Part shown: positions 33,955 to 34,996 of the stretch, in pieces | Position numbering within the stretch: the first letter of the stretch is position 1 | How the letters are laid out: each line of letters starts with the position of its first letter | Assembly (NCBI GenBank): GCA_036005065.1 | Contig: DASYQW010000062.1 | Coordinates: forward strand, 569-64,568 | DNA: 64,000 nucleotides | Direction: 5' to 3' | DNA from: Candidatus Methylomirabilota bacterium | Lineage (GTDB): Bacteria; Methylomirabilota; Methylomirabilia; Rokubacteriales; DASRDR01 | Translations under genes and position numbers: made by a program | Notes under the pieces: generated by a model | The model's database searches: none | What the model saw: only the letters and a program-made list of their open reading frames with translations | Told to the model about the DNA's origin: nothing

Positions 33955-33983
33955 TTGCCAAGGCTGCGAACAACCGCTATTCT
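33955..33983 (+). promoter_or_regulatory. Putative sigma70 promoter of the MT-like/rpsU/RRM unit
   Basis: TTGCCA-N17-TATTCT. Confidence 0.65.
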
Positions 33984-33988
33984 GTGGA

Positions 33989-34261
33989 GTGTCGCCAGGC
34001 ATTCCAGCGGAGCTGGTGGCAGGGGGGTTCTCCCGCGTGAGTCACCAGGCACCGCGTCCGTTCCATCGCCTCTCGAGCCCGGGACCCGCTTCCGCCTATC
34101 GCGAGGCGCCCTGTCGGCATCCCGCCTGCCGCTGCTCTGCCCGTCCGGAACGGCGGTACTGTAGCGACTCCTGCGCCGCCGTCGGCGCCGGGCGCGGATC
34201 GATCGGTGCCCCGTGCCAATGCGAACACGATCTCTGTACGGAAACCCGGCGTGAAGCGTAG
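33989..34261 (+). CDS. Small Cys/His-rich metallothionein-like protein
   Basis: C-terminal CRHPACRC-x6-RYCSDSC-x13-CQCEHDLC has 8 Cys and 2 His, including the YCSxxC core of SmtA-type bacterial metallothioneins. The start is either GTG 33989 (leaderless) or GTG 34037 (after AGGGGGG). Confidence 0.7.
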   Translation: MSPGIPAELVAGGFSRVSHQAPRPFHRLSSPGPASAYREAPCRHPACRCSARPERRYCSDSCAAVGAGRGSIGAPCQCEHDLCTETRREA

Positions 34262-34318: not shown

Positions 34319-34513
34319 ATGAAGATCGAGGTATTCGACAACCAGATCGAGCCCGCGCTCAAGGCGCTCAAGAAAGAGATGGCCACCGGAGGCCTGTTCA
34401 AGGAGATGAAGCGACGGGCCTACTATGAGAAGCCTTCAGTGAGGCGGAAGCGCAAGCAAGCCGAGGCCCGGAAGCGGCGGCGACGGGCGGCCCGGCGCTC
34501 GCATGGCGACTAG
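34319..34513 (+). CDS. rpsU: 30S ribosomal protein bS21
   Basis: IEPALKALKK...FKEMKRRAYYEKPSVRRKRKQAEARKR. Strong SD GGGGAGG. Confidence 0.95.
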   Translation: MKIEVFDNQIEPALKALKKEMATGGLFKEMKRRAYYEKPSVRRKRKQAEARKRRRRAARRSHGD

Positions 34514-34600
34514 TGGATTGTCGGCCATGACCACGCGCCGCGTGAGGCCCGGTCACAGCGGACCTGATCGGTCCGCCACAACACGAGAGAGGAGGCGGCC

Positions 34601-34996
34601 ATTCCACCAAGGATCTTCGTAGGCAACCTGAGCTTCCAGACGACCGCGCAGCAGCTCACGCAGTTCCTGTCGGCGGCAGGCAACGTCGTAGGGGTCCACC
34701 TTCCCAGCGATCGCGAGACGGGCCAGCCTCGTGGTTTCGCGTTCGTGGAGTTTTCGAGCGAGGCCGAGGCGGCCGACGCCATCCGGCTCTTCAACGATCG
34801 GGACCTCGATGGCCGGAAGCTGCGGGTCAACATGGCCGACGATCGGCCGCCGCGGGCCGGCGGCTTTCGCACCGATCGGCCCTCCGGCTCCTTCGGCGCG
34901 GGCTCCCGCGGCGACGGTGCCCCGCCGCCCTCGAAGAGGCCGTTCAGGAGCAAGGGGAGCCGCCGCGGCATCCGGGCGCGCAAGCGGAGCCTCTGA
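34601..34996 (+). CDS. RRM (RNP-1) RNA-binding protein with a probable ATT start codon
   Basis: RNP2 IFVGNLSF and RNP1 RGFAFVEF are in one frame. There is an in-frame TGA at 34565 and no ATG/GTG/TTG before RNP2. GGAGG at 34591-34595 is 5 nt before the ATT at 34601. Confidence 0.85.
   Translation: MPPRIFVGNLSFQTTAQQLTQFLSAAGNVVGVHLPSDRETGQPRGFAFVEFSSEAEAADAIRLFNDRDLDGRKLRVNMADDRPPRAGGFRTDRPSGSFGAGSRGDGAPPPSKRPFRSKGSRRGIRARKRSL

Follow-up and report, generated by a model that had tools for sequence, protein, structure and literature searches.

The 64,000-nt stretch of Candidatus Methylomirabilota DNA analyzed here (the window; all coordinates are positions in it, position 1 being its first letter) contains a gene for a 131-residue protein with a single RNA recognition motif (RRM). 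On the evidence of the sequence and of its orthologues, translation of this RRM gene very probably begins at an AUU codon at 34601. The gene and its initiation region comprise the following features.

34514 to 34589, forward strand: intergenic leader between rpsU and the RRM gene, containing an in-frame TGA; not conserved by sequence (alignment A1) and not structured by folding.
34590 to 34595, forward strand: Shine-Dalgarno (SD) sequence AGGAGG, read from the sequence, 5 nt before the start codon.
34598 to 34600, forward strand: GCC, the R-Y-C context at positions −3 to −1, conserved in 111 distinct family members with ATT or ATC.
34601 to 34603, forward strand: predicted ATT start codon of the RRM gene, from the closed frame, orthologue conservation, and four assemblies.
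34601 to 34996, forward strand: full RRM gene, 131 residues, stop TGA at 34994 to 34996, from translation and full-length alignment to orthologues of 119 to 185 residues.
34613 to 34825, forward strand: RRM_1 domain (Pfam PF00076), residues 5 to 75.
34745 to 34747, forward strand: false GTG start used by gene callers for an 83-residue product, from the open reading frame (ORF) list and an identical database protein, P0002.
34952 to 34993, forward strand: family-specific basic C-terminal tail, KGSRRGIRARKRSL, conserved in orthologues as KGSRR[GN]xRxxKR[SG]L.

The frame of the RRM gene has a TGA stop at 34565-34567, as seen both in the sequence and in the translation of 34568-34996. The codons of 34568-34612 read TCG GTC CGC CAC AAC ACG AGA GAG GAG GCG GCC ATT CCA CCA AGG, and neither ATG, GTG, nor TTG occurs in this frame between the stop and the RRM domain, as the initial annotation had claimed. 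Eleven codons separate the TGA from ATT 34601-34603, which is followed by CCA CCA AGG ATC TTC GTA GGC AAC CTG to give (M)PPRIFVGNL. Upstream of the ATT lies the SD sequence AGGAGG (34590-34595; GGAGG at 34591-34595) with a spacer of 5 nt, CGGCC. The initial annotation had placed the stop, the GGAGG, the 5-nt gap, and the N-terminal reading at these same positions. Counted from the ATT, residues 5-75 match the whole of Pfam RRM_1 (PF00076; profile positions 1-70 of 70, E = 9.5e-20, 70.7 bits against a cutoff of 20.7), and both RNP2 (IFVGNL) and RNP1 (RGFAFVEF) are there. Since the profile is complete from residue 5, a start at or before 34613 is needed for the whole domain. The program-made ORF list opens the frame only at GTG 34745, yielding 83 residues, and public gene calls carry the identical product (P0002). 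This start costs the protein RNP2 and, as had been pointed out beforehand, half of the RRM domain.

Over 34345-34976, contigs from four soil-metagenome runs, each from a different sample and study, match the window without a single difference. The letters at 34601-34603 are the same in all four independent assemblies and no alternative is seen, which excludes an assembly error, a source of a misread ATG that the initial annotation had asked about. The motif by itself is unremarkable: GGAGG-N4-7-ATT is no rarer than chance in the window (3 found, 4.7 expected), and a run of 15 codons without a canonical start is not improbable. What gives it weight is where it stands with respect to the domain, together with its conservation in other species. 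The window has a G+C content of 70%, and ATT accounts for 34 of the 757 Ile codons in its coding frames (4.5%).

Orthologous loci were drawn from a scan of one genome per species (80 loci) and from an independent scan of JGI metagenome contigs (80 loci), and the codon four before the invariant [IV]FVGNL was compared. The sequences come from Binatia, Acidobacteriota (Vicinamibacteria and Thermoanaerobaculia), metagenome-assembled genomes (MAGs) of the NC10/Rokubacteria type, and Chloroflexota. Of the 80 species representatives, 43 have ATT at the homologous position, 19 have ATC (with one more ATC displaced by a codon), 17 have ATG, and 1 has TTG. The metagenome loci have ATT in 42, ATC in 7, ATG in 23, GTG in 2, and TTG in 1, with the ATG spaced differently in a few. 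After pooling and de-duplication, 150 distinct initiation regions remain (ATT 84, ATC 27, ATG 35, GTG 2, TTG 2). The alignment of orthologous 5′ ends that had been suggested at the outset thus finds ATT or ATC kept in 111 of the 150 distinct sequences (~74%), spanning at least four phyla. The suspicion that close orthologues might all have ATG was not borne out. The closest relatives (loci L081-L083, L084, L085, which is a Candidatus Rokubacteria MAG, and L020) have ATT in every case; judged by these best hits, the organism of the window is probably related to Rokubacteria/Methylomirabilota.

Several further observations distinguish this codon from an ordinary Ile codon. Within the genome-derived set, window included, 36 of 64 ATT/ATC sites lie in a closed frame, with an in-frame upstream stop and no canonical start between the stop and the site. 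In some orthologues the stop is only 4-5 codons off and the SD sequence itself lies in between, as in TGA GAG GAG GTC ACC ATT. None of the 111 ATT/ATC members has a canonical codon between the ATT or ATC and RNP2. In the closest relatives, nucleotide conservation sets in abruptly at AGAGGAGGCGGCCATT, a block that is nearly invariant among them (alignment A1). Members that start with ATG have it at exactly the homologous codon, with equal N-terminal length (e.g., M-[PSA]-x-K-V-F-V-G-N-L). Finally, ATT makes up 76% of ATT/ATC codons at the start site, against 21% of the Ile codons inside these genes (Fisher p = 3e-21, calculated over sequences that are not phylogenetically independent).

The near-cognate codon does not occur alone. 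Members with ATT or ATC almost always have a strong SD sequence 6-8 nt upstream; measured from the end of GGAG, the spacing falls in this range in 96 of the 111. The mean duplex energy with the anti-SD sequence is −9.66 kcal/mol in these members vs −7.36 kcal/mol in those with canonical starts (Mann-Whitney p = 1e-5). The three bases before the codon are also constrained, with G or A at −3 in 104, C or T at −2 in 107, and C at −1 in 100 of the 111 distinct sequences, typically as GCC. The upstream in-frame stops mean that these bases are not coding, and the R-Y-C pattern is missing in canonical-start members. The Escherichia coli genes infC (GGT-ATT) and pcnB (ACT-ATT) are without this context, and about half of the putative canonical starts in the window have C at −1. 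The R-Y-C arrangement at −3 to −1 before AUU/AUC resembles the eukaryotic Kozak sequence RCC-AUG. Pairing of the GCC context with the loop of initiator tRNA or with the 3′ tail of 16S rRNA was considered and dropped, as inspection gave no convincing complementarity.

A structured leader or thermosensor around the start was likewise rejected. The leader in the window folds no better than its shuffles (z-score −0.02), and RNAalifold on 64 sequences returns an empty consensus with no conserved pair, local folding being slightly weaker than in shuffles. An Rfam scan of the whole window gave no match.

On a rough neighbor-joining tree of 84 distinct proteins, the most parsimonious history of the start codon has ATT at the root and about 13 state changes, among them repeated interconversion of ATT and ATC. 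The ATG members on this tree belong chiefly to one Thermoanaerobaculia clade, with a few singletons. The near-cognate start is thus probably the ancestral state of the family. ATG is one transversion from ATT or ATC and synonymous sites in the adjoining codons are saturated, so that retention of AUU/AUC implies purifying selection on a weak start; the codon looks selected, rather than the product of mutation or of sequencing error. It is also particular to this gene. Tail-less paralogous RRM genes that adjoin the AUU-start gene use ATG (L081 3486-3812, L114, L155), and canonical starts are present near the 5′ ends of the other coding ORFs of the window; a genome-wide habit of ATT/ATC initiation was rejected on these grounds. 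The adjoining second RRM genes (MASKLYVGGL..., MKIYVGNL...) have a normal ATG behind an SD sequence of their own on the same contigs.

The orthologues were aligned over their full length, and members with ATT/ATC and ATG starts share one architecture: the RRM, a low-complexity Pro/Gly/Arg linker, and a basic C-terminal tail. By sequence, the protein of the window belongs to a distinct family defined by these three elements, the tail reading KGSRRGxRxRKRSL. Neither Pfam nor NCBIfam has a model that includes the tail in its conserved form. The Vicinamibacteria members L044, L064, L066, L071, and L035 have an acidic tail (…RRRRDD..DDDDADY) instead of the basic one. The NCBIfam equivalog domain NF058537 (Rbp_regulator) scores 77.6 bits, under its curated cutoff of 100, which indicates kinship at the level of the domain only, and some family proteins carry the database label "cold-inducible RNA-binding protein." PDB sequence matches to 34601-34993 are generic RRMs. 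Among the best single-domain matches are plastid cS22 (5x8p_v, 3.6e-20) and mitoribosomal mS86 (9gyt_k, 1.7e-13). Both cS22 (PSRP-2) and mS86 are RRM proteins that serve as small-subunit constituents of bacterial-type ribosomes, though the likeness is at the level of the RRM domain only, and cS22 is of organellar origin and has two RRMs whereas the window protein has one. The basic tail, together with a neighboring gene for ribosomal protein bS21, would fit a ribosome-associated role.

Two further genes lie upstream of the leader.

34319 to 34513, forward strand: rpsU, encoding bS21 (64 residues), ATG start, stop TAG at 34511 to 34513; Pfam Ribosomal_S21, E = 4.1e-17.
33989 to 34261, forward strand: Cys-rich small ORF of 90 residues (CRHPACRC...YCSDSCA...PCQCEHDLC), probably the first gene of the cluster, from the ORF list and tblastn.

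rpsU ends 88 nt before ATT 34601. No terminator-like site was found in 34514-34589, which makes a single transcript likely in the lineage of the window; rpsU and the RRM gene would then probably share that transcript, with the RRM gene retaining its own initiation signal. Copies of rpsU that are 79-92% identical precede the RRM gene in L020, L081, L084, L085, and L088/L089. The description of the gene as lying directly behind bS21 in the initial annotation therefore applies to the window and its close relatives and does not extend to the family: rpsU is found upstream in the window, L020, L081-L085, and L088/L089, and in only 1 of the 80 species representatives. Linkage to bS21 as a family trait was accordingly rejected in favor of a lineage-specific one. 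In L088/L089 (86-699), the rpsU-linked RRM gene has ATG, and the TAG stop of bS21 is part of the SD sequence, 8 nt before the ATG. This arrangement suggests tight translational coupling, unlike the 88-nt gap and ATT of the window.

The Cys-rich ORF recurs upstream of rpsU with 59-65% identity by tblastn in L081 (2393-2614), L084 (289-528), and L085 (1994-2233), where no gene is called. It has no Pfam match, and a sigma-70-like promoter match lies at 33955-33983. The ORF may encode an unannotated, metal-binding small protein and form, together with rpsU and the RRM gene, a cluster of three genes. In another frame, an ATG-initiated ORF of 39 codons (34503-34622, forward strand) opens within the end of rpsU, runs across the RRM initiation region, and closes 19 nt beyond the ATT; as far as checked, the relatives do not preserve it as an ORF.

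The closest parallel for the gene pair is the rbp-rpsU cluster of cyanobacteria, in which the gene of a small single-RRM protein (RbpA1 and others) also adjoins that of S21. In the window, rpsU comes first and the RRM gene second, and in contrast to the cyanobacterial cluster the linkage does not extend beyond close relatives. AUG is, as far as known, the start codon of cyanobacterial rbp genes. The RRM protein also differs by its Pro/Gly/Arg linker and basic tail from the C-termini of cyanobacterial Rbp proteins, which are Gly-rich or carry a PDPRWA-type motif (PMC12232666). The cluster is cold regulated in cyanobacteria, to go by the citation of Sato 1994 as reference 22 of that paper.

With regard to the start itself, the nearest known system is infC, in which a near-cognate AUU/AUC is likewise conserved over a wide phylogenetic distance behind a good SD sequence. 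A tie to the translation apparatus is a further point of likeness, provided in the window by the bS21 neighbor. There are differences, however. E. coli infC reads GGAGG-N8-ATT with GGT as the preceding triplet, and the window gene AGGAGG-N5-ATT with GCC. Unlike infC, about a quarter of the RRM family has reverted to canonical starts. The product is an RRM protein and not IF3, so any effect of IF3 would be one way, with no feedback loop. E. coli pcnB, for poly(A) polymerase I, has an annotated ATT behind GAGG, and thus also produces a protein of RNA metabolism from AUU. For E. coli, only infC and pcnB are listed as having confirmed non-canonical starts, and the pcnB start varies among AUG, GUG, and UUG in other phyla (10.1101/063800). 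The AUU of pcnB is lineage limited, whereas AUU/AUC is the majority state of the RRM family over several phyla. In Listeria, fixed non-canonical starts are reported for infC and rnhC (PMC13068326).

The likeliest mechanism would follow the infC precedent. The strong SD sequence (AGGAGG, 5-nt spacer) in an unstructured leader would place AUU 34601 in the P site of the 30S subunit, where initiator tRNA would read it as Met with a mismatch at the third position. The family keeps a strong SD sequence and a weak codon rather than the easier combination of a weak SD sequence and AUG, so the selected property is likely codon specific, and would probably be the rejection of AUU/AUC by IF3 (with IF1). 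Synthesis of the RRM protein would then drop at a high IF3:30S ratio or with ppGpp, and climb under relaxed initiation fidelity, in the manner of infC. The AUU/AUC of infC is the target of IF3 autoregulation; excess IF3 halves the activity of AUU mRNAs or cuts it by more than 60%, and, like nutrient limitation, ppGpp, and low temperature, it depresses these mRNAs selectively (PMC5499595). The initial annotation had proposed a dependence on IF3 or initiation fidelity. By analogy with these data, we consider such control of the RRM gene quite possible, if tentative. An extended form of the idea appears doubtful as a whole, namely that AUU/AUC, a near-perfect SD sequence, and the R-Y-C context together constitute a dedicated sensor of initiation fidelity (IF3:30S, ppGpp), which sets the level of a basic-tailed RRM protein acting on or near the 30S subunit, with R-Y-C as a new bacterial determinant of near-cognate initiation. 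An action of the protein on or near the 30S subunit would account for the linkage to bS21 in some lineages.

A number of points weigh against control by IF3 and against a special importance of the codon. The dependence on IF3 would rest purely on analogy with E. coli, and the model does not account for the R-Y-C context. In E. coli extracts, low temperature is unfavorable to AUU mRNAs (PMC5499595), an awkward fit with the "cold-inducible" label. One family member in four does without the near-cognate start, using ATG, GTG, or TTG, so that this start is not indispensable. The orthologue counts, as noted for the Fisher test above, come from sequences that share ancestry. No public RNA runs are listed for the locus, and infC is not in the 64-kb window.

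The strongest alternative is that AUU/AUC serves simply to hold a protein that would do harm in excess at a low, constitutive level, with no sensing and no regulatory role for IF3. We regard this as a real possibility, though short of probable. AUU and AUC initiate at about 1-2% of the AUG level in E. coli reporters (bioRxiv 10.1101/063800), weakening of the start codon is documented as a means of setting expression (PMC13068326, PMC5499595), and the ATG quarter of the family mostly has weaker SD sequences, which suggests that total initiation strength is held constant. A weak SD sequence would be the easier route to low expression, however, and the ATT/ATC members keep near-perfect SD sequences at optimal spacing. 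Moreover, AUU/AUC has lasted over very deep divergence with ATG one mutation away.

It is very unlikely that initiation at AUU depends on coupling or termination-reinitiation from an upstream ORF, be it rpsU or a short upstream ORF, instead of free binding of the 30S subunit. Such coupling is hinted at by the presence of rpsU 88 nt upstream without a terminator, by the 39-codon ORF (34503-34622) that overlaps the start in another frame, by the rpsU stop 8 nt from the RRM start in L088/L089, and by stop codons that abut the SD sequence in some orthologues. Across the family, an ORF of at least 40 codons ends within −40 to +15 of the start at only 39 of 101 ATT/ATC loci, many spurious ORFs arise in high-GC DNA, rpsU is absent upstream in 79 of the 80 species representatives, and a strong SD sequence of its own precedes nearly every ATT/ATC member. 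With no consistent ORF end near the start, coupling was rejected as a general mechanism.

Highly improbable, too, is a canonical start elsewhere, either far upstream, at the first RNP2 codon, or at GTG 34745, with the ATT as an ordinary Ile codon. This is nonetheless how most public gene calls treat the family. JGI, ENA, and Logan calls extend or shorten the RRM protein: in a set of the 120 best protein clusters, 81 have an N-terminal extension running through the Ile codon, 28 have lost N-terminal residues (16 begin at [IV]FVGNL and 12 inside the domain), and only 10 start at the right codon. NCBI records are divided, L085 (2646) having its coding sequence (CDS) start at the ATC of IFVGNL, four codons downstream of the ATT, and L086 (301) and L087 (301) at the homologous ATT itself. 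An upstream start is contradicted in the window by the TGA 11 codons before the ATT with no canonical start after it, and by the 36 of 64 sites that are similarly closed. Where the frame is open, the N-terminal "extensions" vary from 2 to 77 residues and their sequences are unlike each other. The first RNP2 codon is GTG in 26 of the 111 ATT/ATC members, but it is GTC, GTT, or GTA in 55 and therefore not start capable in half of them, and it lies 17-20 nt from the SD sequence; a start at this codon was rejected. The same holds for GTG 34745, which would remove RNP2 and half of the fold. Finally, a pseudogene reading of the RRM gene, with the ATT due to a lone inactivating mutation or an error of assembly, can be practically dismissed, as nothing was found in its favor, the four independent assemblies are identical, ATT/ATC is common to the closest relatives and most of the family, and the ORF is intact with its domain and tail conserved.

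Conserved non-canonical starts are very rare in bacteria, and infC is the textbook case. Full-text literature searches found no description of an RRM family with AUU/AUC starts, and an article on assembly-defective 30S subunits and misinitiation (PMC6868393) does not mention bS21. A conserved near-cognate start is thus an already known kind of feature, as in infC and pcnB, and had been placed on the ATT of this gene in some NCBI records (L086 and L087) before the present analysis; the RRM family is unusual in its phylogenetic breadth and in its R-Y-C context. Most public models of the family are wrong, which distorts domain boundaries and analyses of untranslated regions and operons. The family would be a second one, beside infC, to keep AUU/AUC over several phyla, with a strong SD sequence and an unexplained upstream context, and would offer an independent natural case in which to study the selective value of near-cognate starts. 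The bacterial RRM proteins concerned are widespread and uncharacterized, and belong to poorly studied soil phyla; the start codon would provide a first regulatory handle on them.

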